Shown: positions 1 through 32,681, counted from the stretch's first letter. The stretch: 34,250 bases of DNA from an uncultured Gammaproteobacteria bacterium (GCA_964642485.1 CAZXPA010000002.1:1-34250); one strand, 5' to 3'. A program made the numbers and translations. Notes: generated by a model from the letters alone, not told the origin.

Positions 1-1
1 T

Positions 2-331
2 TTGCCTGAAATTCTGCCTAAAACCAATGACCTAGACCAATTAATAAGCTGGCGGAGAAGATTCACTCCTAATTCAGAACCAGCAAAACTGATTGAGGCT
101 AGAATGGCCAAGGTTTTGCCAGAAACCAATGACCTGGACCAATTAATAAGCTGGTGGGGAGAAGTCCCTTCTAATTCAGAACCAGCAAAACTGATTGAGG
201 CTAGAATGGCCGAGGTTTTGCCTGAAATTCTGCCTAAAACCAATGACCTGGACCAATTAATAAGCTGGCGGAGAGAAGTCTCTTCTAATTCAGAGCCGGA
301 AAAACTGATTGAGGCTAGAATGGCCAAGGTT
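2..331 (+). repeat. Tandem repeat, 3 units (2-115, 116-217, 218-331; 114/102/114 bp)
   Basis: Each unit starts ttgcc(t/a)ga and ends gctagaatggcc(a/g)aggt. The units are about 90% identical by eye and are in frame. Confidence 0.85.
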
Positions 332-457
332 TTGAAATTAATTTCATCAGAATCAGTTCCTCAGTGGTTTGTCAGAAGAATAGAGCAAGGCAAAATTCCA
401 GGCTTTCTGCTTGAAGAATTTAAAAACAAAGCTGCAGATATCTATCAGTCTTTATAG
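2..457 (+). CDS. 5'-truncated repeat-containing hypothetical protein
   Basis: ORF is open to the window edge. It has three 34-38 aa repeats (LPKTNDLDQLISW..NSEPAKLIEARMAKV) and a unique C-terminus. No recognisable family. Confidence 0.5.
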   Translation: MPEILPKTNDLDQLISWRRRFTPNSEPAKLIEARMAKVLPETNDLDQLISWWGEVPSNSEPAKLIEARMAEVLPEILPKTNDLDQLISWRREVSSNSEPEKLIEARMAKVLKLISSESVPQWFVRRIEQGKIPGFLLEEFKNKAADIYQSL

Positions 458-594: not shown

Positions 595-1812
595 TTAAAA
601 TTTTTCTATCTCAGATTTCCTGACAGCAGCTTTAATAAGCTTTTTTATTCTAATCTTTTTTTCAGCTTTTTCTACATCTTTTAAACGAGCTCTGGTTTCC
701 GGGTGTTTAGGCAAAAATCGGCTGCAGCAATCTTGATCAGGTAAAATAGAGATGTCAAAAGTATTAATTTCTTTAGCTTTTTTTATTATTTCTTCCTTGT
801 CCTGGCCAACTAATGGCCTTAAAATTAATAATTCAACCGCTTGATTAATAACACCAATATTTTCTAGGGTTTGTGAAGCCACCTGACCAAGGCTTTCTCC
901 AGTTACCAGAGCCCGGGCCTTTTCTTTTTTAGCAACCTCTTGAGCGACCTTAAACATTATTCGACGGTATAAAATAATGCGCAACTTAGCCGGAGCATTT
1001 AAAAGAATCTCTTTTTGAATATCAGCAAAAGGCATTAAATAAAGTTTGGATTGAAACTGAAATTTAGTCAAAATTTTAACCAATTTCTTAGCCTTTTTGA
1101 TTGAGTCATCATTAGTATATGGATACGCATGAAAATGGATAAAAACCATTTTCAATCCTCTTTTAATGAGATAAAGGGCCGCAACTGGTGAATCAATCCC
1201 GCCAGAAAGCAACACTAAACCTTTACCGCTCACGCCAACTGGCAAACCACCCAGGCCTTTAATTTTCTCTAAATACAAAAAAGCGAATTTCTCAACAATT
1301 TCAATAAAACAAGTTAAATCTGGATTTTTTAAATCAACTTTTTTATTTAACCTTTCATTCAACCAAGCACCAACTTTTTCATTTATCTTTGGAGAGGTTA
1401 AGTAAAAATCTTTTTTTGATCTTTGAGTTAAAACTCGAAAACTTTTAAATTCTTTATGCTCTAAAAACTCTAATGCTTTTTTTTGAATTGATTCAATGTT
1501 TTGCTCAACACTTTGGGCAAAACAAAAATAAGCTAAACCAAAAACATTCTTCAAACTATCCTGAATCCGTTCTTGTCTTTTTTCCCCCTCAGGGCTTAAC
1601 TCAATAATAATTCGGCCTGAGATCCGCTTTACCCTGTTAAATAATTTCGCCTCTGGCGAAATTGCCGCTTTGCGGCATTTAACAGGGTGAACAAATTCAA
1701 AAAAGCAAGAATCTAAAGACTGTTTTAAATTCTCAACTAGTTTTTCTTCAAAAAACTTTCGATTTTTTCCTTTTAAGCCGATTTCGCTGTAATGACAAAT
1801 AATGTAATTCAT
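595..1812 (-). CDS. thiI: tRNA 4-thiouridine synthase ThiI (THUMP + PP-loop ATPase)
   Basis: PP-loop SGGIDSPVAA. The N-terminus MNYIICHYSEIGLKGKNR is typical of ThiI. The ATG at 1812 is preferred over the ORF-track start at 1848. Carries a 20-aa in-frame repeat insert. Confidence 0.9.
   Translation of the reverse strand: MNYIICHYSEIGLKGKNRKFFEEKLVENLKQSLDSCFFEFVHPVKCRKAAISPEAKLFNRVKRISGRIIIELSPEGEKRQERIQDSLKNVFGLAYFCFAQSVEQNIESIQKKALEFLEHKEFKSFRVLTQRSKKDFYLTSPKINEKVGAWLNERLNKKVDLKNPDLTCFIEIVEKFAFLYLEKIKGLGGLPVGVSGKGLVLLSGGIDSPVAALYLIKRGLKMVFIHFHAYPYTNDDSIKKAKKLVKILTKFQFQSKLYLMPFADIQKEILLNAPAKLRIILYRRIMFKVAQEVAKKEKARALVTGESLGQVASQTLENIGVINQAVELLILRPLVGQDKEEIIKKAKEINTFDISILPDQDCCSRFLPKHPETRARLKDVEKAEKKIRIKKLIKAAVRKSEIEKF
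1630..1692. repeat. 60-bp palindromic element, copy 1 (inside thiI, in frame)
   Basis: Terminal inverted repeats accctgttaaat and atttaacagggt. Inner hairpins aatttcgcc-tctg-ggcgaaatt and gccgc-ttt-gcggc. Related copies at 14779-14854 and 19934-19996. Confidence 0.9.
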
Positions 1813-1899
1813 ATTTAAAATAATACTAAAAAAATAAGATTTTCTCAATAGAAGTTCTTGATTTTTTTAAAAAATCTTATAAGATTAAATAAGAATTTT

Positions 1900-5503: not shown

Positions 5504-7237
5504 TTATTCTCCGCTTCTAATACGAATGACGATTTTATCTCCGTCTTTTATACCTTCAGTTATTTCAATACTACCGTTACTCCCTCGCATTCCAGTTTTA
5601 ACTTCAACTTCGCGATAACTAAGACCATCTTGATTTAAGATCCTAACAATTTTTTTCCCACCCTTTTTTAAAATTGCGCGTTGGGGTATGCTGATGACGT
5701 TTTTCTTTATGTTGGTTAGAATATCAAGATCTGCCGTCATGCCCGATCTTATTAAGTCGCTTTCTTCTGCAAATTCAAAACTAACTTCATAGGTCGGAAT
5801 ATTATCAATTATGGTTTCAGCCGGAGCGATTTCAATTACTTTAGCTTTAAACTCCGTGTCACTGCTGTAAGCATCCAAAGTAACAGTTGCCAGATCGTCA
5901 ATCTTAATATTAGCAATGTCAACTTCAGGAACATTAGATTTTATTTCAAAGTCCATCTCAGAAATAATCGAAAGGACCAGAGCATTAAGTGAAACAATTT
6001 CGCCAATTTTAGCTTTTTGTTCAACAACTACGCCACTGATCGGTGCCCTAAGAACTGTTTTTACTAATTGAGCCCGAACATTTTCAATTTTAGCCTGAGC
6101 TTGTTTAATCTGAGCTCTCTGAGATGTAATGTTTATTTCGGCTTGCTTGACCTGGGCCTCCTGAGCTCTAATTTGTTCGTCTGTAGCCCCGGATTTTTTA
6201 AGAGTAAGTTCGTCTTCAGCTAAAGTCAGGGCATTTTGACCTTCATTAACCCCGGCCTGAGCTGAATTAATATTATTTTGATTAGTTATTTTTTGAGCAG
6301 CAATTGATTGTTTTTGGCTATTAACATTAGAAATAGCTGTATTTATATTAGTCCGAGCCGTATTTATATTGGTTTTGTAAGTATTAAGTGTGGCCTGAGA
6401 TAAACCAGTACTAGCATTAACTGCTTCATTTAACCGACTTAAAAAATTTCTAATTATTACTAAATAACCCTCTCCATTAATCAAAGCTTGATCTAGGCCT
6501 GAAGAAGATAAATTATCAATCTCTGTTTTAAATGTTTCAAGTGTCTGACCAGCTAACACCCTTCCGTTTTCAACGTCTATTTTAGCTTGAGAATTAGAGG
6601 TTGAAAAAGTTATTTGCGGATCTTCAGAAGAATCATTGGAAAATAATTCATCTATTTGTTTGTTCACCGCGTCGTCAGCTTTGGTATAGGCATCTTGGAG
6701 AATATCTCCAACGTCATCATAAAGGTTGTTTAAATCAATCCCTGCTTTATTCTTAACATTTTCTAAATTCACTTCTGCGTCAGCCAATGTCTTTTTTGCG
6801 TTGGCAACCTTTGTCTCCACCACCTGAATCTCTTCTGGTTTAGCTCCTACTTTTAATTCATCTAACTTTGCTCTCTGGGTTTCTAAAGCAGCTTGATATT
6901 GTTTTAACCCAGCTTGAGCGCTTTCTAAAGCAGCTTGGTCCTGAGCTAACTGAGCCATTAAATCAGCGTTGTCTAAAGCAACTAATATTTGGTCTTTTAT
7001 TACTTGGTCACCAACTTTAACATTAACCTCTGAAATTCGGCCACTTTTTTCAAAGGCCAAATCAACACTCTCAACTGGGTCAACCCGACCAGTAACACTT
7101 ACTTCTTGAATAAGGTCGCTTTTTTGAGCAATTATAAAATCATAGATTGGTTTTTTCTCCCGGCTAAAATAAAAATAACCACCAACAAAAACAATAACTA
7201 AAATAATAATAAAATTATATTTTTTCTTTATTTTCAT
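5504..7237 (-). CDS. HlyD/MacA-family periplasmic adaptor with long coiled coil
   Basis: N-terminal TM helix, biotinyl-lipoyl-like hairpin motifs, a roughly 300-aa Q/A/N-rich coiled-coil, and a beta-barrel C-terminus. Lies upstream of the ABC genes. Confidence 0.8.
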   Translation of the reverse strand: MKIKKKYNFIIILVIVFVGGYFYFSREKKPIYDFIIAQKSDLIQEVSVTGRVDPVESVDLAFEKSGRISEVNVKVGDQVIKDQILVALDNADLMAQLAQDQAALESAQAGLKQYQAALETQRAKLDELKVGAKPEEIQVVETKVANAKKTLADAEVNLENVKNKAGIDLNNLYDDVGDILQDAYTKADDAVNKQIDELFSNDSSEDPQITFSTSNSQAKIDVENGRVLAGQTLETFKTEIDNLSSSGLDQALINGEGYLVIIRNFLSRLNEAVNASTGLSQATLNTYKTNINTARTNINTAISNVNSQKQSIAAQKITNQNNINSAQAGVNEGQNALTLAEDELTLKKSGATDEQIRAQEAQVKQAEINITSQRAQIKQAQAKIENVRAQLVKTVLRAPISGVVVEQKAKIGEIVSLNALVLSIISEMDFEIKSNVPEVDIANIKIDDLATVTLDAYSSDTEFKAKVIEIAPAETIIDNIPTYEVSFEFAEESDLIRSGMTADLDILTNIKKNVISIPQRAILKKGGKKIVRILNQDGLSYREVEVKTGMRGSNGSIEITEGIKDGDKIVIRIRSGE

Positions 7238-9945: not shown

Positions 9946-10018
9946 GCCGAGGTAGCTCAGTGGTACCTGCCTGCCGGCAGGCAGGCCTGCCTGCCGGCAG
10001 GCAGGGAGCAAATGGCTG
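9946..10018 (+). pseudogene. Disrupted 5' half of tRNA-Phe (positions 1-34)
   Basis: gccgaggtagctcagtggta, then a 40-nt palindrome insert, then gagcaaatggctg. This matches nt 1-34 of the downstream tRNA-Phe except for two stem bases. Confidence 0.8.
9966..10005. repeat. Two tandem perfect 20-nt palindromes (cctgcctgccggcaggcagg x2)
   Basis: Read directly from the sequence. The insert sits in the D-loop of the tRNA-Phe 5' fragment. Confidence 0.95.
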
Positions 10019-10031
10019 GTTTCAAATTTCT

Positions 10032-10274
10032 ATGACTTATAAAGTCTACGCTATTAAAAATAAAAAGGGAAGGATTTATATTGGACTAACAAAAAACATA
10101 AATCAACGATTAAAAGATCATAATAGTGGAAAAGTTTTTTCAACAAAAGGTTATAGACCGTGGGATTTATTTTATAATGAATTTTGTACAGATAGGATTA
10201 AAGCGCGGAAACGCGAAAAATTTTTAAAATCAGGCTGTGGTAAAGAATTTCTTAAAAAACTCATGCCGAGGTAG
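10032..10274 (+). CDS. Small GIY-YIG nuclease-family protein (80 aa)
   Basis: YKVYAIKNKKGRIYIGLTKNINQRLKDHNSG...REKFLKSGCG matches the GIY-YIG/UPF0213 pattern. The TAG stop lies inside tRNA-Phe. Confidence 0.85.
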   Translation: MTYKVYAIKNKKGRIYIGLTKNINQRLKDHNSGKVFSTKGYRPWDLFYNEFCTDRIKARKREKFLKSGCGKEFLKKLMPR

Positions 10275-12489: not shown

Positions 12490-12575
12490 TGGTGCCCAGG
12501 GCGGGACTCGAACCCGCACGCTCCGAAGAGCACGGCTCCTCAAGCCGCCATGTTTTCCAATTACATCACCTGGGC
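12490..12575 (-). tRNA. tRNA-Leu(GAG), CCA encoded, long variable arm
   Basis: GCCCAGG..GCGGC-TTGAGGA-GCCGT, variable arm gctcttcggagcgt, T-arm GCGGG-TTCGAGT-CCCGC, then CCTGGGC-A-CCA. Confidence 0.9.
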
Positions 12576-13214
12576 TTGTATTTTAAGGATGTTTTCTACT
12601 TTCTTCTGCTTTCTCAAAAGACATGGAACGCCCTCTTTATAATACATTCTTTTCCAAAGAATCTGTGAATCTCTTTTAGCATATTCTAATTGCCACGATC
12701 CTGTAGCTTTAGATATGCCACCTCCTTTAACTTCTGCCAATTGTTCAATTTGATTATGCAGCCATTTAAGATAAGATAAGCTAGCGGAAGTAAATCGGAT
12801 GTTAAACATAAAACTATTTGGCCACCTTTCATCCCAAAAAGAGTGGCAAGAGCCATCTCCGTCAAAGTATCCCCGTAAAAAATCGAAAAAATATTTATCA
12901 GAAATCTTCAACTCGCCAAGCGTCTTACTTTTAGCTGGAGTTAATCCGATTGTGAGAAGGTAGTTATAAAGTATTACGTGGCTAAATTGAAGCCGAGGAC
13001 ACCTTCTTCCATGTCCATCTGATTTATATGCTATTTTAACATCTAAATTCAAACACTCTTTAAACGTTTTTATTAACTGTATATCTTTAGACGTAAAATC
13101 AATATGTCTGCCGTCTTTAGATAAACATCCATCTGCTGTTAATAAACCAATAGCATAAGCAAACTCTGGCGTCCATTTTATTACATAATCTTTGTTCTTT
13201 TGATTACCCCTCAT
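12561..13214 (-). CDS. Free-standing double-motif LAGLIDADG homing endonuclease-like protein
   Basis: Two LAGLIDADG motifs ([11 protein letters not shown] and [11 protein letters not shown]). ATGA overlap with the rplS stop. The last 15 nt lie inside tRNA-Leu. Confidence 0.85.
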
Positions 13215-13567: not shown

Positions 13568-14153
13568 GTTTATTCTTTAAAAAATTTTTAATCATTTGAA
13601 TAGCTTTTTTCTTAATTTTGCTGATACCCTCTTTGTTGTTATCAACAATAAGATCATATATCTTTTTTTGTCTTAAATTAATTCCATAAAGTTGCTGGTA
13701 ACGCTTTTGATCCCCGTTATCTCTCTGCTCAATCATTTCTCTGGCCTGGGAAAGTGTTAAATTATTTCTTTGACTTAGTCTTTTAATTCGAATTGATTTC
13801 CTACAATCAACAAAAATCTTACAATCAGAAAAATCACCAGACGCCCAACCAGCCAACCGGCCAGCAATAACGTAGCCCCCTTTCATAGCAGTCTTTAACA
13901 TCTGCTCATCTATAAAATAATCAACCTTTGCTGGTAAAGTTTTAGATGCCTTTCCTAATGAAATCTTTCTTTTTCTAGCAAATTTTCTCAGGATATCGCC
14001 GGCATTTATGAATTCTAATTTGAAATAACGAGCTATTTCTTTAGCAATTGTATCTTTGCCTGAAGCAGCAAATCCTGAGACAGTGATGGTTAACCCTTTT
14101 TTTCTAATTACTGCTTTTTCGTGTCTTTTTAGAAATTTTAAATATGTTCCCAT
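13527..14153 (-). CDS. cmk: Cytidylate kinase-like P-loop kinase
   Basis: P-loop-like motif [11 protein letters not shown], adjacent to FINAGDILR. About 200 aa, archaeal-type cmk-like. Confidence 0.7.
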
Positions 14154-14950
14154 TATTGACTATTTTTTAATTTTTTTAAAAAATCATCTAACTCTTTTGG
14201 TAACCCACTTTTAAACTCTTGCCACCTATTATTTAAATCATAAAAACCTAAATAACAAGCATGTAAAAATATTCTCCCTAATTTTTGTTTGGTTGTTAAA
14301 TTGTTTAATTGTTTAATTGAATATCGCCTGTCCCCAACAATTGGACAATTAATTGATTTAAGATGAACTCTTATCTGATGAGTCCGGCCAGTTGCCGGTC
14401 TTACCTGCAAAAGGGTAAAATCCTTAAATTGTTTTTTGATTTTATACCTTGTAAATGCCGGCTTCTCGTCTTTTATCTTTTTTCTATACTGAACAGCAAC
14501 AATTTTCCCTTCTCTAGTTCTAGCTAAAGGTATATCAATTATTCCTCTTTTTTCTAAAGGCCTGCCATGAACTAAAGCTAAATATTCTTTTTTTATCTTA
14601 CCCTGTTTAAACTGCTCAATTAAGACTTGATACATTTTTTCCGTCCGGGCCACAACCATTAAGCCAGAGACATCTCTGTCTAGACGATGGACAATCCCCC
14701 ATCGTCCTGGCTGACCAACCCCTTTTATCTCTGGATAATATTTTAAAAGCAAGTCAACTAAAGTTTTGTCTAAAGAATATTTAACAGGGTGAACCCTGTT
14801 AAATAATTTCGCCCTTGGCGAAATTCCTGCTCCGCAGGATTTAACAGGGTGAACCAATAAACCGGCTGGTTTATCAACTATTAAAAAATTATCATCCTTG
14901 GTCAGGATGTCTAATTTTATATCAAATTTAGGGAAAAAGTCAACTGGCAT
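14153..14950 (-). CDS. RluA-family pseudouridine synthase (no S4 domain)
   Basis: Motifs DKPAGLLVHP, HRLDRDVSGLMVVART and GRTHQIRVHL. Carries a 20-aa in-frame repeat insert directly after LLVHP. Confidence 0.9.
   Translation of the reverse strand: MPVDFFPKFDIKLDILTKDDNFLIVDKPAGLLVHPVKSCGAGISPRAKLFNRVHPVKYSLDKTLVDLLLKYYPEIKGVGQPGRWGIVHRLDRDVSGLMVVARTEKMYQVLIEQFKQGKIKKEYLALVHGRPLEKRGIIDIPLARTREGKIVAVQYRKKIKDEKPAFTRYKIKKQFKDFTLLQVRPATGRTHQIRVHLKSINCPIVGDRRYSIKQLNNLTTKQKLGRIFLHACYLGFYDLNNRWQEFKSGLPKELDDFLKKLKNSQ
14779..14854. repeat. 60-bp palindromic element, copy 2 (inside the rluA-family gene), plus a 16-bp direct repeat
   Basis: atttaacagggtgaac occurs at 14779-14794 and 14839-14854, exactly 60 bp apart. 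Inner hairpins aatttcgcc-cttg-ggcgaaatt and cctgc-tcc-gcagg. Confidence 0.9.
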
Positions 14951-17151: not shown

Positions 17152-17226
17152 TGGTGGGCGTAGATGGATTTGAACCATCGACCTTTTCTTTATCAGAGAA
17201 ACGCTCTACCCCTGAGCTATACGCCC
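17152..17226 (-). tRNA. tRNA-Ile(GAU), CCA encoded
   Basis: GGGCGTA..TTTCT-CTGATAA-AGAAA..GATGG-TTCAAAT-CCATC-TACGCCC-A-CCA. Confidence 0.9.
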
Positions 17227-17240
17227 AAAATCATTCTATC

Positions 17241-17265
17241 ATTTTAACAATATAACATTTTAACA
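17241..17265 (-). promoter_or_regulatory. Two tandem extended -10 boxes (TGtTAAAAT) upstream of tRNA-Ile
   Basis: Minus-sense tgttaaaatgttatattgttaaaatgatagaatgatttt, then the tRNA. The proximal box ends 14 nt from the tRNA 5' end. Confidence 0.55.
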
Positions 17266-17371
17266 AAAACATTTCAACTATATGATTGCATAATAATAGA
17301 ATAACAAAAAAACCAGTTAAAATCAATCCCTCACCCAGAATTTATGCATTTTTTAATGCGAAGCATATATC

Positions 17372-17409: not shown

Positions 17410-17627
17410 GTTTTATATACACACTTTCAAAAATGCTGAGCATTAAATGAGCAGGTTCTTATAAATTCCGGGTAAGAGATGAAGAATTTGTCAAAGGCAG
17501 AGAGAGCCAACCTTTACCTTACCTTGAATCTTATATGATTCAAGGGTCGACCTCGTTACTGTTAAACAGCAACTGAGTCCTCTAAATGAGGTGATCCACC
17601 CACAGCTTCCGCTACGGGTGCCTTGTT

Positions 17628-17939
17628 CATGTTATTCCCTATGTTTCCATGGGCACGGACTATATCTTCACCCCCTTCTTTCGATCGAAAGGAGGGGGGC
17701 CAACGTATGATAACAGTTTGATTCTCTAATAAACTTAGAGCCCCTGCTATCAAAGGTATAAACCTTAAGTCTCTACGGGGCGAAGCACTCAACGCCTTGA
17801 GTGCTCGCTTCCCACGATGTTGCCTTCATGCCTTTATTTTAGCATAAAATGACTAAAAAATAAAGAGTAAGGGTTCACCGTTATAGTTGGGTTTTTCTTA
17901 AGGATTACTCCCTAAGGTCGCAATTTACAGGTTGTAACC
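17628..17939 (-). mobile_element. Group I intron (312 nt, no ORF) at E. coli-equivalent position about 1498
   Basis: Interrupts AAGTCGT|AACAAGG. The 5' exon ends in U and the intron ends in G. Core-like GTAGAGACTTAAGG and GAAGATATAGTCCGT elements. GCGAC can pair with exon GUCGU, with a U-G pair at the splice site. Confidence 0.8.
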
Positions 17940-18358
17940 ACGACTTCGCCCCTGTTACCAATCCTACCTTATTCCCGCGAACGCGGACTTTCGGGTATTA
18001 CCGGCTTCCTTGGCGTGACGGGCAGTGAGTACAAAGTTTGGGAACGTATTCACCGTACCGTAGCTGATATACGGTTACTAGCGATTCCAGCTTCATGAGG
18101 TCGAGTTGCAGACCTCAATCCGAACTGAGACCGGCTTTGATGGGATTAGCTCCGCCTTACGGCTTTGCGACCCTTTGTACCGGCCATTGTACCACGTGTG
18201 TTGCCCAGGGCATAAGGGCCATGCTGATTTGACGTCGTCCCCACCTTCCTCCGGCTCATCACCGGCAGTCCTCTTAGAGTGCCCAACTTCTTAAAAGAAT
18301 GATGGCAACTAAGAGCAAGGGTTGCGCTCGTTTCCCCACTTAAGGGTACACGTCACCG

Positions 18359-18389
<31 letters not shown>

Positions 18390-18519
18390 ACTAGGTTCCG
18401 ATTTTACGGTCAGTCAACCTTTCGGCTAACCTACAACCTAGCGAGTCAAGCCCTGGTGAGGTTCTTCGCTTAGCATCGAATTAAACCACATGGTCCACCG
18501 CTTGTGCAAACTCCCGTCT

Positions 18520-18551
<32 letters not shown>

Positions 18552-18932
18552 TCCCAGGCGGGATGCTTAACGCGTTAGCTTTTTTACTGCGGCACTGAAA
18601 GGGTCGACACTTCCAATGCCCAGCATCCATCGTTTACGGCGTGGAATACCGGGGTATCTAATCCCGTTCTCTCCCCACGCTTTCGTGTCTCAGCGTCAGA
18701 ACTGTTCTAGCAAGCTGCCTTCGCATTCGGTGTTCCTGCCGATATTAACGGATTCTACCCCTACACCGGCAGTTCCACTTGCCTCTCCCAGTCTCTAGTT
18801 TAATAGTTTTTCTGGCGCTCCCAATGTTGAGCAAAGGGCTTTAACCAGAAACTTATTAAACCGCCTACACACGCTTTACGCCCAGTAAATCCGGATAACG
18901 CTTGTCGCCTTCGTCTTACCGCAGCTGCTGGC

Positions 18933-19380
18933 TGTATACTCATAATAGAGTAATTGCTACGGACTATATCACAATCCTTTTTTATAAATAAAAGGACCCT
19001 CGGCGTATGATAACAGTTTATAATTCCAGATTATCTGGCACCTGTTATCTCATCGCTTAATATTTAGCTTTAAGCGAATCAGTCTCTGAGGGGTTAATCC
19101 CGACTTGTCGGGACAACTTCCCTGCTGATTGCCTATAAGCTGTTTCGTCATAAACGAAATGCAGCAAAATCTTAAAGTTTAGATAAGAATTTTAACCTTT
19201 TCAAACTTCAAGGTTCTGGCAAAGCCAGGTTCTTATAGTTTGGCAATAAGATATTATACCTTTCAAACTTCAAGGTTCTGGCAAAGCCAGGTTCTTATAG
19301 GTTTCCAGCATATAAGCCAAGTTTTTCAACTTCGATTACTCGAAGAAGTCGCGCTCTTTGATAAGACGAAAATTAATTGC
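18933..19380 (-). mobile_element. Group I intron (about 448 nt, no ORF) at E. coli-equivalent position about 516
   Basis: Interrupts CTTCGT|GCCAGCAGC. Core-like CTCAGAGACTGATT and GTGATATAGTCCGT. Shares aaactgttatcatacg with the other intron. Boundaries are ambiguous by 1-2 nt. Confidence 0.75.
19195..19300. repeat. 43-44 bp direct repeat (period 63 bp) inside the position-516 intron
   Basis: acctttt-caaacttcaaggttctggcaaagccaggttcttatag at 19195-19238 and again at 19258-19300, differing by one T. Confidence 0.9.
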
Positions 19381-19821
19381 ACGAAGTTAGCTGCGACTTA
19401 TTCCTGGGGTACACTCAACCGAAGCTTGTTCCCCCAGAAAAGCAGTTTACACTCCGAAAAGATTCATCCTGCACGCGGCGTCGCTCCTTCAGCCTTTCGG
19501 CCATTGAGGAAGATTCTTGACTGCAGCCCCCCGTAGGAGATTGAGCAGTGTCTCAGTCTCAATGAGGCGGATCATGCTCTCACACCCGCTACCCGTCATC
19601 GGCTTGGTAGGCCATTACCCTACCAACAACCTGATGGGCCATAAGCTCCTCAGAAAGCGCGATTGCTCGCTTTACTAAGCACTCAATATGAGTGCTCAGC
19701 ATATGGGGTATTAGCCTCGATTTCTCGAGGTTATTCCCCTCTTTCCGGCAGATTACTAATGTGTTACTCTCCCGTTTGCCACTGCCTGATAAATCAGGCC
19801 GTTCGACTTGCATGCCTTAGA

Positions 19822-19861
<40 letters not shown>

Positions 19862-19933
19862 TTAAAAAAGATTTGATCTAATAAATAAAAGGAATAGATT
19901 GGCTAATTCTCTACCTTTGACAAATTCTTCATT

Positions 19934-19996
19934 TTACCCTGTTAAATGCCGCTTCGCGGCAATTTCGCCAAGGGCGAAATTATTTAACAGGGTGAA
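19934..19996. repeat. 60-bp palindromic element, copy 3 (intergenic, between trmD and 16S)
   Basis: taccctgttaaat-gccgc-ttc-gcggc-aatttcgcc-aag-ggcgaaatt-atttaacagggtga. On the plus strand it is in the opposite orientation to copies 1 and 2. Confidence 0.9.
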
Positions 19997-20080: not shown

Positions 20081-20761
20081 TTACCCGATTACCTGATGTG
20101 TCCGCCACTCTTTTACTTTCTGATGATCGCCTGAAAGTAAAACCTTTGGCGCCTTCAGCTTCTTTAGCTTACCAAACTTATCTTTATATGTAAAGACCTC
20201 TGGACGAGTATATTGTGGATATTCAATATTAATTGATGATTTAAAAGAAAAGCTCTCTTCTTCTAAAGATTCTGCTTTAATCACCCCAGGAATTAACCTG
20301 GCAACCGCATCAACAATTATCATGGCAGGGATTTCTCCGCCTGTCAAGATATAAGAACCGATAGAAATTTGTTCATCAACAAACTTTGTTACCCTTTCGT
20401 CAACCCCCTCATACCGACCACAAATTAGAACCACTCTTTCTGTTCTTGACAATCTCCTGGCTGTCTTTTGATCAAGTTGCTTACCTTTTGGGGTTAATAA
20501 AATAATTCTTAATTTTTTATTTATATTTTTGGTTTTACTTAAACTTCTTATTGCTCTATATAAAGGAGGGAGTTTAAGAATCATTCCCGGCCCACCGCCA
20601 TAAGGTTTATCATCTACTGTTTTGTGCTTGTCAGTAGTCCATTTTCTAAGGTTATGAACCTTAATTTTAATGAATTTCTTTTTCTGGGCCCGAGCAATAA
20701 TCGAGGTATTAAAATAGGAATCAAAAATATGAGGAAATATTGTAATAATATCAAACTGCAT
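20081..20761 (-). CDS. trmD: tRNA (guanine37-N1)-methyltransferase TrmD
   Basis: MQFDIITIFP, DDKPYGGGPGM, LICGRYEGVDERV and SIGSYILTGGEIPAMIIVDAV. Confidence 0.95.
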   Translation of the reverse strand: MQFDIITIFPHIFDSYFNTSIIARAQKKKFIKIKVHNLRKWTTDKHKTVDDKPYGGGPGMILKLPPLYRAIRSLSKTKNINKKLRIILLTPKGKQLDQKTARRLSRTERVVLICGRYEGVDERVTKFVDEQISIGSYILTGGEIPAMIIVDAVARLIPGVIKAESLEEESFSFKSSINIEYPQYTRPEVFTYKDKFGKLKKLKAPKVLLSGDHQKVKEWRTHQVIG

Positions 20762-21425: not shown

Positions 21426-21749
21426 TCAACCCCCCTCTTTTTTTGGCTTCTTTTTTACTGCTCTTTCCTTTTTACCCTTTTTCTTGTGTACCCTGGTTAC
21501 CTTAACTTTTTTGCCCTTAATAATCCCTTGCTTAATTAATAAATTATGAACTGAACCAGTTGACTGAGCTCCTTGAGAAAGCCAATATTTTATCCGCTCA
21601 ACTTTAAGAACGGTCTTTTTTGTTAAGGGGTTTAAAAATCCTAAATCTTCTAAAAAATCCCCCCGAGGATCTTTAGCTTTTTCCAATAAAATTATTCGAA
21701 AAAACGGTTGATTTTTTTTTCCTTTTCGACTTAACTTGATCGCTAACAT
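21426..21749 (-). CDS. rpsP: 30S ribosomal protein S16 with basic C-terminal extension
   Basis: MLAIKLSRKGKKNQPFFRIIL...RIKYWLSQGAQSTGSV. Confidence 0.95.
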   Translation of the reverse strand: MLAIKLSRKGKKNQPFFRIILLEKAKDPRGDFLEDLGFLNPLTKKTVLKVERIKYWLSQGAQSTGSVHNLLIKQGIIKGKKVKVTRVHKKKGKKERAVKKKPKKEGG

Positions 21750-21758
21750 AACAAAATC

Positions 21759-21767
21759 ATTTTAACA
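21759..21767 (-). promoter_or_regulatory. Extended -10 box TGtTAAAAT, 9 nt upstream of the rpsP ATG (second copy at 21783-21791)
   Basis: Minus-sense aatgttaaaatgattttgttATG. Confidence 0.5.
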
Positions 21768-21885
21768 TTAGAACATTGGAACATTTTAACATAATCTTTT
21801 AAAAAAGCAATGAGTGTTTTATTTATTCATAGCATTCGCATACATTCGCTCGCCTCGTCTCCGAGTCGGAGCGGGTAGATTGGCA

Positions 21886-22608
21886 TTATTTTTGTGCTTT
21901 CTTGGCCACTAAATTACTGGCCCTGAGTAAAGAATCAAATGTGCCGGCATCTGACCAAAACCCTTTAACAACCTCAAAAGAAGCTGTTTTTTGGTTGATA
22001 TAGAAATTATTTACATCAGTAATCTCTAATTCTCCTCTTTGAGAGGGTTTTAAGGTCTTAATTACATCAAAAACTTGACCATCATACATATAAAGACCAG
22101 TTACAGCATATTGACTCTTTGGTTTTTTCGGTTTTTCTTCAATCTTGATTATCTTTTTCCCTTTAAGCTGAGCCACGCCAAAACGTTCTGGATCTGAAAC
22201 TTTCTTTAAAAAAACCTTAGCTCCCCATTTTTGATTTTCAAAATCCTTAACTGCCCTAGTAAAATCATCTTCAAAAATATTATCACCTAAAATAACCACT
22301 ACCTTACCAGTGTCAGCAAAATCTTCAGCCAAGCCCAGGGCCTCAGCAATCCCCCCAGATCCTTCCTGATAAGTATAATGAATCTCTTTTAAACCAAACT
22401 CTTTTCCATTGCCCAAAAGTTTTAGAAAATCACCTGGGTTATTACCACCAGTAACAATTAAAACCTCCTTAATGCCCGCATTGACCAGCGTTTCTAAAGG
22501 ATAATAGATCATAGGCTTCTTAAAAACTGCTAAACAATGTTTGTTGGTGACTTTTGTTAAGGGGAGTAACCGGGTTCCGGTTCCCCCGGCAAGAATGATT
22601 CCCTTCAT
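21886..22608 (-). CDS. Sugar-phosphate nucleotidyltransferase (glucose-1-phosphate thymidylyl/uridylyltransferase-like)
   Basis: MKGIILAGGTGTRLLPLT signature, and a short (240 aa) RfbA-like fold. Confidence 0.85.
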   Translation of the reverse strand: MKGIILAGGTGTRLLPLTKVTNKHCLAVFKKPMIYYPLETLVNAGIKEVLIVTGGNNPGDFLKLLGNGKEFGLKEIHYTYQEGSGGIAEALGLAEDFADTGKVVVILGDNIFEDDFTRAVKDFENQKWGAKVFLKKVSDPERFGVAQLKGKKIIKIEEKPKKPKSQYAVTGLYMYDGQVFDVIKTLKPSQRGELEITDVNNFYINQKTASFEVVKGFWSDAGTFDSLLRASNLVAKKAQK

Positions 22609-23492
22609 ATATTTATTGATTTAATCTTCTTTTTTATTAATAAAAACTTGTTATATTTCCTGCGCATCCTATTAACATTTCGACTATCCTTATATAACCA
22701 TTCTAGAATTCTAAGCGCTTGTATATTCCCTCTATATCTTAATGCATAATGATCTCTATTCTTTATATTATTAGTCAATCTTGTTTCACCTACCTTACAA
22801 TATTTAATCAAATAATTCTGGATACTTTTTAAAAGACTTTTTGTCCCTACAATCTGAAAACAAAGAGAGAAATGCCTTTCATCAAACATTATGCTGCCAT
22901 CGCCCTCAAAAATACCCCGAATAAAACTTTTAAAAATATCCTCTCTGTCTTTTTCCTCTATCTCTTTTAAGAATCTTTCGTTTAGAGACTTCTTTTCTCT
23001 CAGACCAAGAGCGATCAATCTATCCACTACATATTCATTATGAATATGTAATGCCAGCTGACCAGAGCAATTGATCATTACTCCCTTAGAAGAGATTCTG
23101 CTATAGGGTGAACGTTTATATAAAGGCCCAGTATATTGCAAAAATTTTTTAATTTTTAAGAGCACGTCTTGATCGCTCATTCTTATCGCAATCCCAAAAT
23201 ATTTAATTGGTCTTAACCTTATAAAACCGTCGCTTAATAACCAGCCTAATACCCATGCAACATCAGGAGTAATTTTATCAAAAAACTTCTCATTTGCGCT
23301 ATATTTAGTTCTATAAAGAGATAGCTTCCATGTCTTATTTCGAATTTCAATATCAAACCCTTTTAATCGATGACTGATCACCCATCGAGAACACCCAACT
23401 GTACGAGCTATTTCATCTTGACTCAATTTATTTTCTATATATTCATTAACCAAAAACTTTTTTGATATTTTATATTGTAATTCTGTTGGCAT
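22605..23492 (-). CDS. Free-standing LAGLIDADG homing endonuclease-like protein with N-terminal HTH
   Basis: LGWLLSDGFI and IRGIFEGDGSI motifs, plus an N-terminal LSQDEIARTVGCSRWVISHRLK helix-turn-helix. ATGA overlap with the downstream gene. Confidence 0.8.
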   Translation of the reverse strand: MPTELQYKISKKFLVNEYIENKLSQDEIARTVGCSRWVISHRLKGFDIEIRNKTWKLSLYRTKYSANEKFFDKITPDVAWVLGWLLSDGFIRLRPIKYFGIAIRMSDQDVLLKIKKFLQYTGPLYKRSPYSRISSKGVMINCSGQLALHIHNEYVVDRLIALGLREKKSLNERFLKEIEEKDREDIFKSFIRGIFEGDGSIMFDERHFSLCFQIVGTKSLLKSIQNYLIKYCKVGETRLTNNIKNRDHYALRYRGNIQALRILEWLYKDSRNVNRMRRKYNKFLLIKKKIKSINI

Positions 23493-24540: not shown

Positions 24541-25389
24541 TTACCAAACTACTTCATCAATTTTTGTATATTTTTCCTCAATTTTATCTTTATCCGGGCA
24601 GATGTTTCTATATTCACACCAGGGACATAGTTTGTTAATACGAGGCGAAAAATTATTATCATCCCTGGCTTCCTTTATAATGTTAACAATTTCATTTTCT
24701 ATTTTTTTTAATTCATCTTTAGTCCATATTATATCATAAATCTTTGAATACTTAATATAAATCAATCCGGCTTTAATCTTTTTTGCAAAAGGATAAAGTT
24801 TAGAAGCTATAATTGCATAAACAGGAACCTGAAGGTCCTTTTCCATCATCTTTTCTACACTATCACGATAAGGCAATTTTCCAGTCTTATAATCCCACAC
24901 TGAAATTGAAGATTCTGAATCTTGATCAATTCTGTCTATTCGACCCGCTATTACAAATTCATCTATACTGCACTGCATCCAATCTTCTAAAGATAGCGGA
25001 ACTATTGATAAATCAGCTTTTGAAATATAATTGTTCAACATTGCAATTGTCTTTAGCCCAAAGGCTTTTTCTTGCTCCACGGATCCAAATAGCTTTTTTC
25101 TTTCTTTGGCGCTCCAGCAGTCACTACTCCAACTACTCTTGGGCGCTCTGGCCCATGAATATCTTAGCATCTCGCCTAAATCTTGATCTCTTCTTTTATT
25201 TATTGGAATTTTTCTAATATCAAAAAATTTTTCAAGAACTAGATGTATTACTTTGCCGATAAAGCTTTCAGGGCTTTCAACAAATTCTGCTTTTACCTCC
25301 CTGTCGTTATGACATTTAAATTTAAACGGACACTGAATATAGGTATTCAATGCATTAGGAAATATTTTTTCTGGAAATATATATGCCAT
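24541..25389 (-). CDS. Cas4/AddB-like PD-(D/E)XK nuclease with 4-Cys Fe-S cluster motif
   Basis: N-terminal Cys (YIQCPFKFKC), GRIDRID, VWDYKTGK, QVPVY, and C-terminal CPWCEYRNIC. Confidence 0.8.
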   Translation of the reverse strand: MAYIFPEKIFPNALNTYIQCPFKFKCHNDREVKAEFVESPESFIGKVIHLVLEKFFDIRKIPINKRRDQDLGEMLRYSWARAPKSSWSSDCWSAKERKKLFGSVEQEKAFGLKTIAMLNNYISKADLSIVPLSLEDWMQCSIDEFVIAGRIDRIDQDSESSISVWDYKTGKLPYRDSVEKMMEKDLQVPVYAIIASKLYPFAKKIKAGLIYIKYSKIYDIIWTKDELKKIENEIVNIIKEARDDNNFSPRINKLCPWCEYRNICPDKDKIEEKYTKIDEVVW

Positions 25390-26280: not shown

Positions 26281-27147
26281 CTATACGGCTCCGATTTGTA
26301 ATTTTAAAATCTTTGAAAGACGATTCACAGGGAATAAATCCTTGGGATATATCTCAACTAATTTAATGTTATATTTTCTGCAAATCTTTTGTTTTTTTCT
26401 AACTAATTTATCATATTCTTTCAGATCGCCTGCCAATCCGAAAAATTCTATAAAAATATCTTTGATAACAAAATCAACGCTTAAGGAATTATTCCCAGGA
26501 TATGGGACTCTTCTCTCATGCCCAATATTTTGATCAGAAAGCCAATCGTCAATTATTTTTTCAGAAAAAGAATCGCATTTGTGTCCGTCATTGGCAATAT
26601 GCTTTTTAGCAAACAATACTGGATTCGGATTAAAACCCGCTGCTTTAATTGCATTATTCCAATTGCCAAATCGGTTTCGGGTAGCACAATAGTGATGAAA
26701 TTCTCTTTTAAGAGGAATTCGTTTATTTCTTTCGTAAAATTCTTTGATTAGCTTACAGATAGTTTCTTTACTTACGACTTGAGATTTGTGTTTACATTTT
26801 ATCGAGCAATATATTTGGTGACCAAAAAATTCCTTACCACAATAATTGCATTTATCCTTCAGTTTTTTCTTTTTGGGAAATTTAGAGTTATTAAATGAAG
26901 CAGCACAAGAGAGAGAACAGAAAACGTTACCTGATTTAGATTTTCTAAATTGATTTAATAACCGAGAGATTTTCTTACTACAATTAGGGTTGGCACAAAT
27001 TTTTTCTACCCTCCTCAACCTATATTGACTTTGGCATTTTATAGAACAATACTGATTCCAGTCGAATTTATTGGCTTCATTTACTCGGCCTAATGTTCTG
27101 TAAAATCTTTTACCACAAAAGTCACACTTAACTTTAACTAAATTCAT
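26281..27147 (-). CDS. Three Cys4 zinc-finger (FCS-like) modules + HEAR-like repeat + C-terminal restriction-endonuclease-like domain
   Basis: CDFCGK..YCSIKC, CANPNC..FCSLSC and CNYCGK..YCSIKC. Then RIPLKREF...FGNWNNAIKAAGF. Then SEKIIDDWL...SVDFVI..IFIEFFG. Confidence 0.65.
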   Translation of the reverse strand: MNLVKVKCDFCGKRFYRTLGRVNEANKFDWNQYCSIKCQSQYRLRRVEKICANPNCSKKISRLLNQFRKSKSGNVFCSLSCAASFNNSKFPKKKKLKDKCNYCGKEFFGHQIYCSIKCKHKSQVVSKETICKLIKEFYERNKRIPLKREFHHYCATRNRFGNWNNAIKAAGFNPNPVLFAKKHIANDGHKCDSFSEKIIDDWLSDQNIGHERRVPYPGNNSLSVDFVIKDIFIEFFGLAGDLKEYDKLVRKKQKICRKYNIKLVEIYPKDLFPVNRLSKILKLQIGAV

Positions 27148-28155: not shown

Positions 28156-28312
28156 TCCCTGCTACTCTCGTAATGCTTGACATTTCTAAGAAATAAAGTA
28201 AAATACAGGTCATCATAATATATAACATGGCAACATGAGAACATTTCCTGCCTGCGGCAGGTAAAAAAAGAAATTTCTATAAAGCAAAATTTCTTATGTT
28301 CCAATGTTCCAA

Positions 28313-28321
28313 TGCTAAAAT
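28313..28321 (+). promoter_or_regulatory. Extended -10 box TGcTAAAAT, 8 nt upstream of the rpsL ATG
   Basis: atgttccaatgttccaatgctaaaat-gaattagt-ATG. Confidence 0.5.
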
Positions 28322-28329
28322 GAATTAGT

Positions 28330-28824: not shown

Positions 28825-29298
28825 ATGCGTGGAAAACCAGCCCCCAAAAGAAAAATCTCTCCTGATCCCAAGTACCATCTTGTTCAAATGGCTAAATTTA
28901 TTAATTACGTGATGAGAAAAGGCAAAAAAACTATTGCCTCAAAAACGGTTTATCAGGCCATAGAGATCATTAAGCAAAAAATTAAAAAAGACCCAATTGA
29001 TATCTTCCAAAAAGCAATTAAAAATACTTCTCCCGTAGTCGAAGTAAGATCTCGTCGAATTGGCGGAGCTAATTACCAAATCCCCTTCCCAACAAATGAA
29101 TCCCGCCGTTTTGTTTTAGCCTCACGCTGGATTATTGAGGCAGCTAAAGCCCGAAAAGGCAAATCAATGTCAGAAAAATTAGCTCAAGAACTTTTAGATG
29201 CCGCCTACAGGCAAGGCGCCGCCGTTAAGAAAAAAGAGGATATCCATCGAATAGCTGAAGCAAATAAGGCCTTTGCTCATTTTGCTAGATATCATTAA
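28825..29298 (+). CDS. rpsG: 30S ribosomal protein S7
   Basis: PDPKY...VEVRSRRIGGANYQIP...ANKAFAHF. Confidence 0.97.
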   Translation: MRGKPAPKRKISPDPKYHLVQMAKFINYVMRKGKKTIASKTVYQAIEIIKQKIKKDPIDIFQKAIKNTSPVVEVRSRRIGGANYQIPFPTNESRRFVLASRWIIEAAKARKGKSMSEKLAQELLDAAYRQGAAVKKKEDIHRIAEANKAFAHFARYH

Positions 29299-29414
29299 AT
29301 CATTTTAATATTCTAACGTTTTAACATATTAACATGCCCCCCCCCTCTAATCTCCCCCTCCCAGAGGGACGGGGAGAAAATTGTTAAATTGTTTCATTGT
29401 TAAATTAGCTTAAT

Positions 29415-32067: not shown

Positions 32068-32151
32068 CAGAAACAAATTAACAACTAAACAACTTAACAA
32101 TTAAACAAAGAATAAAAAAAACAAAATCAATTCCATGGGATTTTGTTAGAA

Positions 32152-32168
32152 TGTTAAAATGTTAAAAT
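32152..32168 (+). promoter_or_regulatory. Two overlapping extended -10 boxes (TGtTAAAAT x2), 6 nt upstream of the infC GTG
   Basis: atgttaaaatgttaaaat-gattta-GTG. Confidence 0.45.
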
Positions 32169-32174
32169 GATTTA

Positions 32175-32681
32175 GTGAAGTACTATCGCTTTAACAATCA
32201 AATATCTGCAACCCAGGTTCGCTTGATTGACGAAAATGGTAAACATTTAGGTACAATTGAAACCACTAAAGCCTTAGAGATGGCTCGAGGAAAAGGATTA
32301 GATTTAGTAGAAATCGACCCAAAAGTAGATCCACCAATAGCAAAAATTCTGGATTTTGGTCGATTTAAATATGAACTAAAGAGAAAAGATCGACAACAAA
32401 AAAAACAACATAAGGCCGGCGGTATTAAAGGGATTCGTCTGACACCAAGAATCGGCAAACATGACTTAGAGCTCCGAGTTACTAAGGCTAGAGAGTTTCT
32501 TTTAGAAAAACAAAAAATAAAAATTGAAATGGTTCTCCGGGGCAGAGAAAAAGCCCACTTTGATCTGGCTGAGAAACTGGTGAAACACTTTATTGAATTG
32601 CTTGGCGAAGAAATAAAAATTGAACAACCGCCAAAAAGACAAGGTAGCCGGTTGATTGCTGTGATTAGCCCTACCAAGTAA
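32175..32681 (+). CDS. infC: Translation initiation factor IF-3
   Basis: NNQISATQVRLIDENGKHLG...LDLVEI...PIAKILDFGRFKYE. Non-ATG (GTG) start, as is usual for infC. Confidence 0.95.
   Translation: MKYYRFNNQISATQVRLIDENGKHLGTIETTKALEMARGKGLDLVEIDPKVDPPIAKILDFGRFKYELKRKDRQQKKQHKAGGIKGIRLTPRIGKHDLELRVTKAREFLLEKQKIKIEMVLRGREKAHFDLAEKLVKHFIELLGEEIKIEQPPKRQGSRLIAVISPTK

Follow-up and report, generated by a model that had tools for sequence, protein, structure and literature searches.

A nested palindromic repeat as a polymorphic, in-frame 60-bp insertion in an RluA-family pseudouridine synthase gene

In-frame "selfish" palindromes are textbook material for Rickettsia only. The Rickettsia palindromic elements (Ogata et al. 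2000, as summarised in PMC10969869) are ~100-150 bp long and, according to that summary, occur in Rickettsia only. Here we describe a shorter palindrome from a 34,250-nucleotide stretch of DNA deposited as from an uncultured Gammaproteobacteria bacterium (GCA_964642485.1, CAZXPA010000002.1:1-34250), the whole of which we refer to as the window; the genome itself is Patescibacteria-like. Three copies of this element were found in the window, and the second (copy 2) is our main subject, i.e., a multi-copy nested palindrome that forms a polymorphic 60-bp insertion, in frame in a gene of essential type encoding an RluA/RluD-family pseudouridine synthase, at a site that mimics one of the element's own arms. 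We think it probable, although well short of certain, that copy 2 represents the insertion of a small, non-autonomous mobile repeat at an arm-like host site.

Mobile palindromes of a second kind are also relevant. Repetitive extragenic palindromes (REP) are single imperfect hairpins with a GTAG-type (GT[AG]G) head and a species-specific sequence, and in REPINs two such units are inverted relative to each other; they are mobilised by RAYT proteins, which are Y1 HUH transposases. The REP/RAYT systems, and non-autonomous elements derived from IS200/IS605 insertion sequences, are characterised by the absence of target duplication, by precise excision, by recognition as folded single-stranded DNA (ssDNA), and by a short specific sequence at one end. 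In IS200/IS605 the subterminal hairpins of the two ends are similar and lie on one and the same strand, so the ends do not form mutual inverted repeats.

The features of copy 2 and its host gene are given below. Loci fetched from other genomes are numbered L001-L251, and orthologous proteins carry numbers of the form P0001.

14153..14950, minus strand: open reading frame (ORF) of 265 amino acids for an RluA/RluD-family pseudouridine synthase (PF00849; RluD is the best solved relative).
14779..14795: first unit of the direct repeat, the 17-mer ATTTAACAGGGTGAACC on the plus strand; GGTTCACCCTGTTAAAT on the coding strand, read as G-VHPVK.
14794..14804: element arm CCCTGTTAAAT, which pairs with 14839-14849 in predicted folds.
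14805..14825: hairpin A, AATTTCGCC-ctt-GGCGAAATT, with a 9-bp stem and a 3-nt loop, also present in copies 1 and 3 and in ~45 metagenome copies.
14826..14838: hairpin B, CCTGC-tcc-GCAGG, with a 5-bp stem and a 3-nt loop.
14839..14855: second unit of the 17-mer direct repeat; the second element arm, ATTTAACAGGG, is 14839-14849.
14796..14855, minus strand: the 60 bp missing from close relatives, coding for 20 extra residues (alignments of L121-L123 DNA and P0001 protein).

The ORF matched PF00849 (PseudoU_synth_2) at 3e-33, and its translation around the insert reads ...DKPAGLLVHPVKSCGAGISPRAKLFNRVHPVKYSLDKTLVDLLLKYYPE...; ...DKPAGLLVHPVKSCGAGISPRAKLFNRVHPVKYSLDK.... The insert follows the LLVHP motif in frame, at the position given in the original prediction; that motif had been assigned to the catalytic domain, but it is a conserved N-terminal motif of the RluA family, and the catalytic aspartate motif, HRLD, lies downstream. 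On the plus strand, 14779-14858 reads ATTTAACAGGGTGAA-CCCTGTTAAAT-AATTTCGCCcttGGCGAAATT-CCTGCtccGCAGG-ATTTAACAGGG-TGAACCAAT. The 16-mer ATTTAACAGGGTGAAC, originally put forward as a direct repeat, is indeed present at both 14779-14794 and 14839-14854, although the true extent of the repeat is the 17-mer (14779-14795 and 14839-14855), with starts offset by 60 bp. Owing to this 17-bp repeat, the 60 bp can be placed in 18 equivalent ways (e.g., 14779-14838). Positions 14779-14789 are the arm part of the first repeat unit, and constitute an extra "solo" arm beside copy 2. With up to 3 mismatches allowed, the 16-mer matched the window 7 times against 0.47 expected from shuffles, none of 100 shuffles reaching 7, and perfect 12-nt arms were present in 7 out of 7 cases in the window. 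The three-way structure was the minimum-energy fold of both strands, as DNA (-24.7 kcal/mol, z = -8.9) and as mRNA (-34.7 kcal/mol, z = -5.8).

In an AlphaFold2 model of the protein, the mean predicted local distance difference test score (pLDDT) was 81, with residues 38-60 below 50, while the rest of the model superposed on RluD with a template modeling (TM) score of 0.80. Alignment with E. coli RluD required gaps summing to 20 residues at the insertion point, and, as had been predicted, removal of the 60 bp restores RluA/RluD spacing. As modeled, the 20-residue insert is probably a tolerated, disordered surface loop following LLVHP, and the intact frame suggests that copy 2 is translated through it.

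The other two copies in the window are as follows.

1628..1691: copy 1, a 64-nt palindrome in frame in the ThiI ORF (595-1848, minus strand), encoding VHPVKCRKAAISPEAKLFNR.
19933..19996: copy 3, intergenic between trmD (20081-20761, minus strand) and the 16S rRNA gene (17913-19867, minus strand).

All three copies share one layout, i.e., an outer stem (TTYA)CCCTGTTAAAT...ATTTAACAGGG(TRAA) enclosing hairpin A (AATTTCGCC-nnn-GGCGAAATT) and hairpin B, with the hairpin order in copy 3 opposite to that in copies 1 and 2. For hairpin B, copies 1 and 3 have the stem GCCGC/GCGGC and copy 2 has CCTGC/GCAGG; the two stems differ at two base pairs, both compensated, which bears out the compensatory change noticed initially. 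With copy 1 in frame in ThiI, copy 2 is also, as stated at the outset, a second in-frame copy. Only one of six frames is free of stops in copy 1, and two are in copy 2; because so few frames are open, both coding copies have the same orientation and frame. Copy 3 abuts a 25-nt stem arm (19908-19932) whose inverted partner lies across the 16S gene at 17479-17503. These two arms are 96% complementary and bracket the 16S gene in the manner of a processing stem, copy 3 touching the upstream arm.

The empty site was defined by aligning orthologues. Exactly the 20 residues were missing from the best RluA orthologue (P0001), which was otherwise 95% identical. Its DNA, available from three assemblies made independently (GCA_016783845.1 at NCBI, one from ENA and one from Logan; L121, L122 and L123), was 96% identical across the gene, lacked the 60 bp, and contained a single copy of the 17-mer, the site reading ...TTATTGGTTCACCCTGTTAAATATTCT...; ...GGTTTATTGGTTCACCCTGTTAAATATTCT.... 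With one 17-mer in these empty alleles, the host site therefore already matched the terminal arm of the element, which was one of two possibilities raised originally, i.e., integration where the host resembled the element's terminus. A more distant empty allele (L125) reads GTT CAT CCA GAT AAA TAT, and is identical at 13 of 16 positions to the arm GTTCACCCTGTTAAAT.

An insert at the same RluA codon was present in 7 of 22 aligned orthologues. For five of the seven, the closest sampled relative was empty, at identities of 88%, 79%, 72%, 61% and, for the window, 95%; the remaining two (P0014 and P0017) are mutual closest relatives, followed by an empty orthologue at 78-80%. Both L124 and L126 carry 60-bp family members at this codon (hairpin B stems GCCAC/GTGGC and GCCGC/GCGGC, respectively), the extra 20 residues and the palindrome occurring together, while the copy in L127 is longer, its interior is not palindromic, and its two arms have co-varied (ACCCCGTTAGA/TCTAACGGGGT). 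Two polarities of junction were seen, ...FNR-VNP-DKY and ...-VHP- (RVHP). Between lineages the element retained 79-80% nucleotide identity, against 39-49% at synonymous third positions of the host gene, which fits either repeated recent insertion or constraint on the DNA itself.

The ThiI copy behaved in the same way. A 94%-identical orthologue had no insert, its empty allele (L128/L129) reading GAA TTT GTT AAG CGA, where the window, with an additional 60 bp, reads GAA TTT GTT CAC CCT GTT AAA T...A TTT AAC AGG GTA AAG CGG; two further lineages were filled at the same ThiI codon. Judged from these sequences, the RluA codon and the one ThiI codon, patchily filled and empty across lineages and always by +60 bp, are recurrent hot spots of gain and loss. 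We rejected the idea that recombination had spread a single filled allele, as the sequences flanking the insert in filled alleles differ between lineages no less than the remainder of the gene does.

The polymorphism may reflect either gain of the element in the lineage of the window or its loss from the relative. In the second course of events, an old element in RluA would have been removed from the relative by precise, palindrome-stimulated deletion between the 17-bp repeats, with GTTCACCCTGTTAAAT left as a footprint. In its favor, the RluA site is occupied in several deep lineages, and the relative encodes HP-V-KY (GTT AAA T, identical to the arm) where other empty alleles encode HP-D/T/N-KY. 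A chance match to the arm at 16/16 positions is improbable, and an L124-type allele deleted between ...GTTAAAT and ...GATAAAT would have exactly the sequence of the relative. However, the relative also lacks the ThiI copy and has no footprint there, and ~45 kb of its DNA (L121, L122, L128) contained no element, only the solo RluA arm, against three copies per 34 kb in the window. In addition, filled alleles are scattered among empty nearest relatives, and the element is far better conserved than synonymous sites, unlike an ancient neutral insert. We therefore regard loss in the relative as doubtful, and it alters the history of the site rather than the identity of the element.

The element belongs to a large family. 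A scan for the arms only (CCTGTTAAAT-N25-55-ATTTAACAGG, one genome per species) returned at least 120 loci; among the loci listed, record titles were mainly Patescibacteria, with Omnitrophota, Desulfobacterales and a WOR-3 variant also represented. One of the genomes with these arms is complete (CP179888.1, L059). The Desulfobacterales contigs carry a 46-nt subfamily and have 41-53% G+C, against 29-46% for most others. In 67 of 129 arm-defined hits the interior parsed exactly into two perfect hairpins with zero unpaired bases, where shuffled interiors would be expected to give 0.015. These interiors vary in sequence (69 distinct stems among 134 hairpins), with loops that were mostly of 3 nt (114/154). 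Flank logos (TTYAC-...-GTRAA) showed that a flanking T-R-A-A pairs with TTYA in most copies, giving 15 nt per arm; overall, elements range from 54 to 66 bp and arms from 11 to 15 nt. A metagenome scan for hairpin A alone found ~45 family members, most with the same arms and several with compensated arm variants (CCCCGTTAAAT/ATTTAACGGGG, GTTAAAC/GTTTAAC and GTCAAAT/ATTTGAC). No element of the same architecture with different arms was seen in ~1 Mb of loci. In the full-text literature outside subscription journals, we found no description of the family under its arm sequence or under palindromic repeats of Patescibacteria or the Candidate Phyla Radiation (CPR).

Bacterial genomes are mostly coding, yet only 17 of 98 two-hairpin copies lay inside ORFs (at least 90 amino acids, crude ORF calling), a strong depletion if the coding fraction of these contigs is taken to be the general bacterial figure. 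Intergenic copies showed no preference among tandem, convergent and divergent contexts. We rejected a role as terminator, as the copies favored neither the 3' ends of genes nor convergent intergenic regions, and the element is not followed by a T-run. Coding copies were found in many unrelated ORFs in one common peptide frame, [I/V][H/Y]PVK...FNRV[K/N]; by their conserved motifs, judged by eye without Pfam, some of the host ORFs look like MiaA, KsgA, GatA and an ATP-cone protein. At six of the fetched loci an ORF stops at a TAA within an arm (CCC TGT TAA), the element therefore supplying the stop codon and a few C-terminal residues there. Tandem or nested copies occurred at L010, L029, L092, L119, L180, L244 and L248. 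In nested copies a whole element replaces one hairpin of an outer element, or the arm is doubled on one side, as in the following places.

L180, ~2890-2990: nested or arm-doubled copy.
L244: nested or arm-doubled copy.
L248: nested or arm-doubled copy.
L119, 6857-6956: nested or arm-doubled copy.
L029, 5337-5513: nested or arm-doubled copy.
L092, 2341-2439: nested or arm-doubled copy.

A variant with the same arms and a conserved, non-palindromic 40-nt interior was found in WOR-3/Stahlbacteria contigs (L011, L015, L020, L026, L050, L055, L061, L063, L078, L085, L108 and L118; also L039, L057, L104 and L115). Outside its 15-nt arms lie direct repeats, CCACAGA(T/G) or ATCTG(C/T)G(T/G), and this is a distinct variant, possibly with a real target duplication or a fixed target. 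The arms flanking ~40-nt interiors had raised the suspicion of a CRISPR array, which we rejected because the arms do not recur within a locus and the interiors, unlike spacers, are conserved. A viral origin was also rejected, a scan of viral contigs returning just two hits, without hairpins and with unextended arms, that look like chance matches. In one 6.9-kb contig (L004), an open frame of 1257 codons that includes an in-frame element is present identically on each of the two strands (elements at 680-733 and 6202-6255); the contig is therefore a large inverted duplication, probably created in assembly.

The strong predicted mRNA fold of copy 2, the compensatory changes that keep the hairpins paired, and the position of copy 3 in the 16S leader beside a processing stem would all be compatible with selection for function, either at the RNA level, as a regulatory structure of the mRNA, a site for RNase III or an intervening sequence, or at the protein level, as an adaptive loop in RluA. 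We consider any such function very unlikely. Rfam 15 returned no family at the element in a gathering-threshold scan of the window, and nothing meaningful in 14700-14930 at E values up to 10. The stems, which end in triloops, are perfect and lack junction bases, and the fold is equally good on both strands; copies lie in either orientation, in all intergenic contexts without bias, and in unrelated genes too. In coding copies the frame is always open and the length always a multiple of three, which would be irrelevant were the RNA excised. As for a selected protein module, close orthologues work without the loop, which was itself modeled at low confidence.

Formally, one copy of the 17-mer in the empty site and two flanking the insert in the filled site are the signature of target-site duplication by staggered cleavage, in which case a 43-bp segment would have transposed; that the element had duplicated its own target was the other possibility raised originally. 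This is highly improbable, because the 43 bp between the repeats lack one arm and do not make a complete family member, and the "duplicated" sequence is the element's own arm. Moreover, the remaining insertions at RluA and ThiI have only 2-6 nt in common with their targets, although the gain is again 60 bp. When ~165 other copies were tested at offsets of 0-8 with lengths of 4, 6 and 8, no consistent target duplication accompanied the hairpin-type copies; the only signals were from the WOR-3 variant, from L111 and L090 (one 6-bp repeat each) and from L093 (a 4-bp repeat). Nor was any of these copies flanked by a 17-bp duplication of unrelated sequence. A layout of an element plus an extra arm was found at one other locus only (L040), and, together with the tandem and nested copies, suggests that arm-like sequence attracts insertions.

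In the filled/empty pairs the element overlaps its target and does not duplicate it. With a full palindrome of 64-66 nt and a net gain that is always 60 nt, 4-6 terminal nucleotides therefore coincide with host sequence. A junction rule may be proposed in which a 60-nt unit (TTYA plus a 56-nt core) would be placed directly 5' of T-N-N-A-(C/G), without target duplication, and the target would then pair with the element's own TTYA end. Five junction types fit the rule, i.e., TTCAC (copy 2), TCCAC (L127), TGAAC (L124, other strand), TGTAC (L126, other strand) and TAAAG (ThiI), the last only if one synonymous GTT/GTA difference is allowed. The RluA Val-His codons (GTTCAY) and the ThiI Val-Lys codons (GTWAAG) would supply such targets, which would make them recurrent hot spots. 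The host tetranucleotide at copy 2 is TTCA, followed by 11 nt identical to an arm. The 17-bp direct repeat exists because the host codons GGT TCA CCC TGT TAA AT (Val-His-Pro-Val-Lys) already equalled the terminal arm; it is not a transposase footprint.

It is scarcely credible that the 60 bp were misplaced in assembly through the repeated arms, for although short palindromic repeats can confuse short-read assemblers and a protein search did not return the exact protein of the window, the insert keeps the frame exactly, a homologous 60-bp insert stands at the same codon in other lineages that were assembled independently (L124 and L126), and the ThiI copy shows the same behavior.

We therefore return to insertion of a mobile repeat at an arm-like site. 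We infer that the element is mobile and non-autonomous, and that it is recognised through its conserved arms. The inverted arms and two perfect triloop hairpins, without junction bases, would form a T- or Y-shaped fold on either strand. Most likely, an enzyme acting in trans would mobilise this folded single-stranded DNA via the arms, in a manner resembling REP/RAYT or IS200/IS605 "peel-and-paste" movement, which would leave no duplication and would allow precise excision; intragenic copies survive only in a stop-free frame. For copy 2, an equally workable route would be a template switch, initiated from 17 nt of arm homology on a donor element with return at a GGT microhomology.

Several points weigh against this reading. 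No mobilising enzyme was found: no transposase is encoded within the window (Pfam), and tblastn of all loci with IS608 TnpA and E. coli RAYT, a weak test, gave one hit, which was unrelated to any element. The arms are perfect mutual inverted repeats, unlike the ends of IS200/IS605. The junction rule is drawn from five junctions at two genomic sites, with one synonymous difference assumed in ThiI, and read-through of the insert is presumed from its intact frame. Finally, the perfect 16/16 arm in the "empty" relative is improbable as pure coincidence, and may be the remnant of an earlier element.

The window has other features, most of them apart from the element. Five free-standing ORFs encode nucleases or related proteins (GIY-YIG, two LAGLIDADG_3, one of them a weak match, an HNH-associated repeat protein, and a PD-(D/E)XK/Cas4-like protein).

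9960-10274, plus strand: free-standing nuclease ORF.
12561-13214, minus strand: free-standing nuclease ORF.
22605-23492, minus strand: free-standing nuclease ORF.
26281-27147, minus strand: free-standing nuclease ORF.
24541-25389, minus strand: free-standing nuclease ORF.
17226-17277, 21746-21803, 28296-28329, 29287-29338 and 32134-32181: ~40-nt AT-rich motif (...TGTTAGAATGTTAAAATGTTAAAATGATTT...).

We found no evidence tying the homing-endonuclease-like ORFs of the window to the element. Where the window has its first LAGLIDADG_3 gene, the close relative has an ORF (233 amino acids) without a recorded Pfam hit, and the very start of the GIY-YIG ORF (9966-10005) contains two tandem copies of a 20-nt perfect palindrome, CCTGCCTGCCGGCAGGCAGG. 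The AT-rich motif lies just upstream of tRNA-Ile, rpsP, rpsL and infC, and also between rpsG and fusA; these positions suggest a promoter or leader common to translation genes. At 1955 nt, against 1533 nt for the model, the 16S rRNA gene therefore carries one or more insertions; within it, a 53-nt sequence occurs twice within 62 nt (19189-19241 and 19251-19303). At the edge of the window (1-334), three tandem copies of a 102-114-nt unit, 84-92% identical, lie inside an ORF (2-457) with no Pfam match.

A wider and more tentative proposal, which we would not yet favor, is that the arms CCCTGTTAAAT/ATTTAACAGGG mark a mobile-DNA system spanning Patescibacteria, Omnitrophota, Desulfobacterales and, in variant form, WOR-3, in which a conserved enzyme would move T-shaped ssDNA palindromes without duplication, and in which these would home to sequences mimicking their ends. 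If so, conserved protein motifs, of which Val-His-Pro in RluA enzymes is an example, would be recurrent hot spots and a source of new surface loops in minimal genomes. That the same 11-15-nt arms recur across phyla, while the inner hairpins vary freely yet stay paired, points to conserved recognition machinery that can be searched for. Behavior like that of the Rickettsia palindromes in ultra-small Patescibacteria genomes shows that even minimal genomes tolerate repeats inside essential RNA-modification genes (RluA and ThiI), and the natural pairs of filled and empty alleles provide material for studying how such repeats move. In practical terms, these elements will show up as spurious "insertions" when proteins of uncultivated lineages are aligned, and will break contigs and lead to mis-called gene ends.

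How does the element compare with known systems? It resembles Rickettsia palindromic elements, REP repeats and MITEs, but fits none of these in full, nor IS200/IS605, and it matches no Rfam family. [quoted passage not shown] However, the fixed-length target-site duplication and the parent insertion sequence with the same repeats that are seen for MITEs were not seen here. Like REP/REPIN-RAYT and IS200/IS605 derivatives, it is a small, multi-copy, mainly extragenic palindrome, in whose hairpin-type copies no target duplication was seen; unlike REP, it has an outer stem and two perfect hairpins with no junction bases, and unlike IS200/IS605, its ends are perfect mutual inverted repeats.

Integron attC sites have the form R'' RYYYAAC ... 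R' GTTRRRY, with an imperfect stem, extrahelical bases and a length of 57-141 nt; the element departs from this form, since ATTTAAC and GTTAAAT match the consensus in reverse order and the stems of the element are perfect. The Xer site dif is 28 bp long, with two 11-bp arms around a 6-8-bp center, and there is usually one per chromosome. As a lead only, we take TGTTAAAT to be common to the element and the XerD arm of E. coli dif, and copy 2 and L040 both contain a closed palindrome of 26-28 bp, ATTTAACAGG-GTGAAC-CCTGTTAAAT; unlike dif, the elements are multi-copy. For copy 2, this closed palindrome might alternatively be attC-like or resemble a LAGLIDADG target. The T-shaped inverted terminal repeats (ITRs) of the parvovirus adeno-associated virus (AAV) and the telomere foldbacks of Streptomyces are ends of linear replicons that prime DNA synthesis. 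The element resembles them in architecture only (an outer stem, two inner palindromes with 3-nt loops, and both hairpin orders, or "flip/flop"), being a dispersed internal chromosomal repeat, and we found no evidence connecting it to either.

Double-hairpin elements have been described from Allomyces mitochondrial DNA (Paquin, Laforest and Lang 2000, cited in PMC7218506). They reportedly form a mobile unit of two adjacent small hairpins, optional between close relatives and present also inside genes; our element likewise has two adjacent hairpins, but the Allomyces elements are mitochondrial and unrelated in sequence. There is also a parallel in habit with the Rickettsia palindromic elements which, in the summary of them, are likewise short palindromes without coding capacity of their own that sit in frame within unrelated housekeeping genes, adding a peptide in the one frame that is tolerated, as well as between genes. 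We set the two families apart by size and hosts: unlike the Rickettsia elements as summarised, the present element is a three-way nested palindrome of 54-66 bp, has ~17% of its copies in coding sequence, and is found in several phyla.

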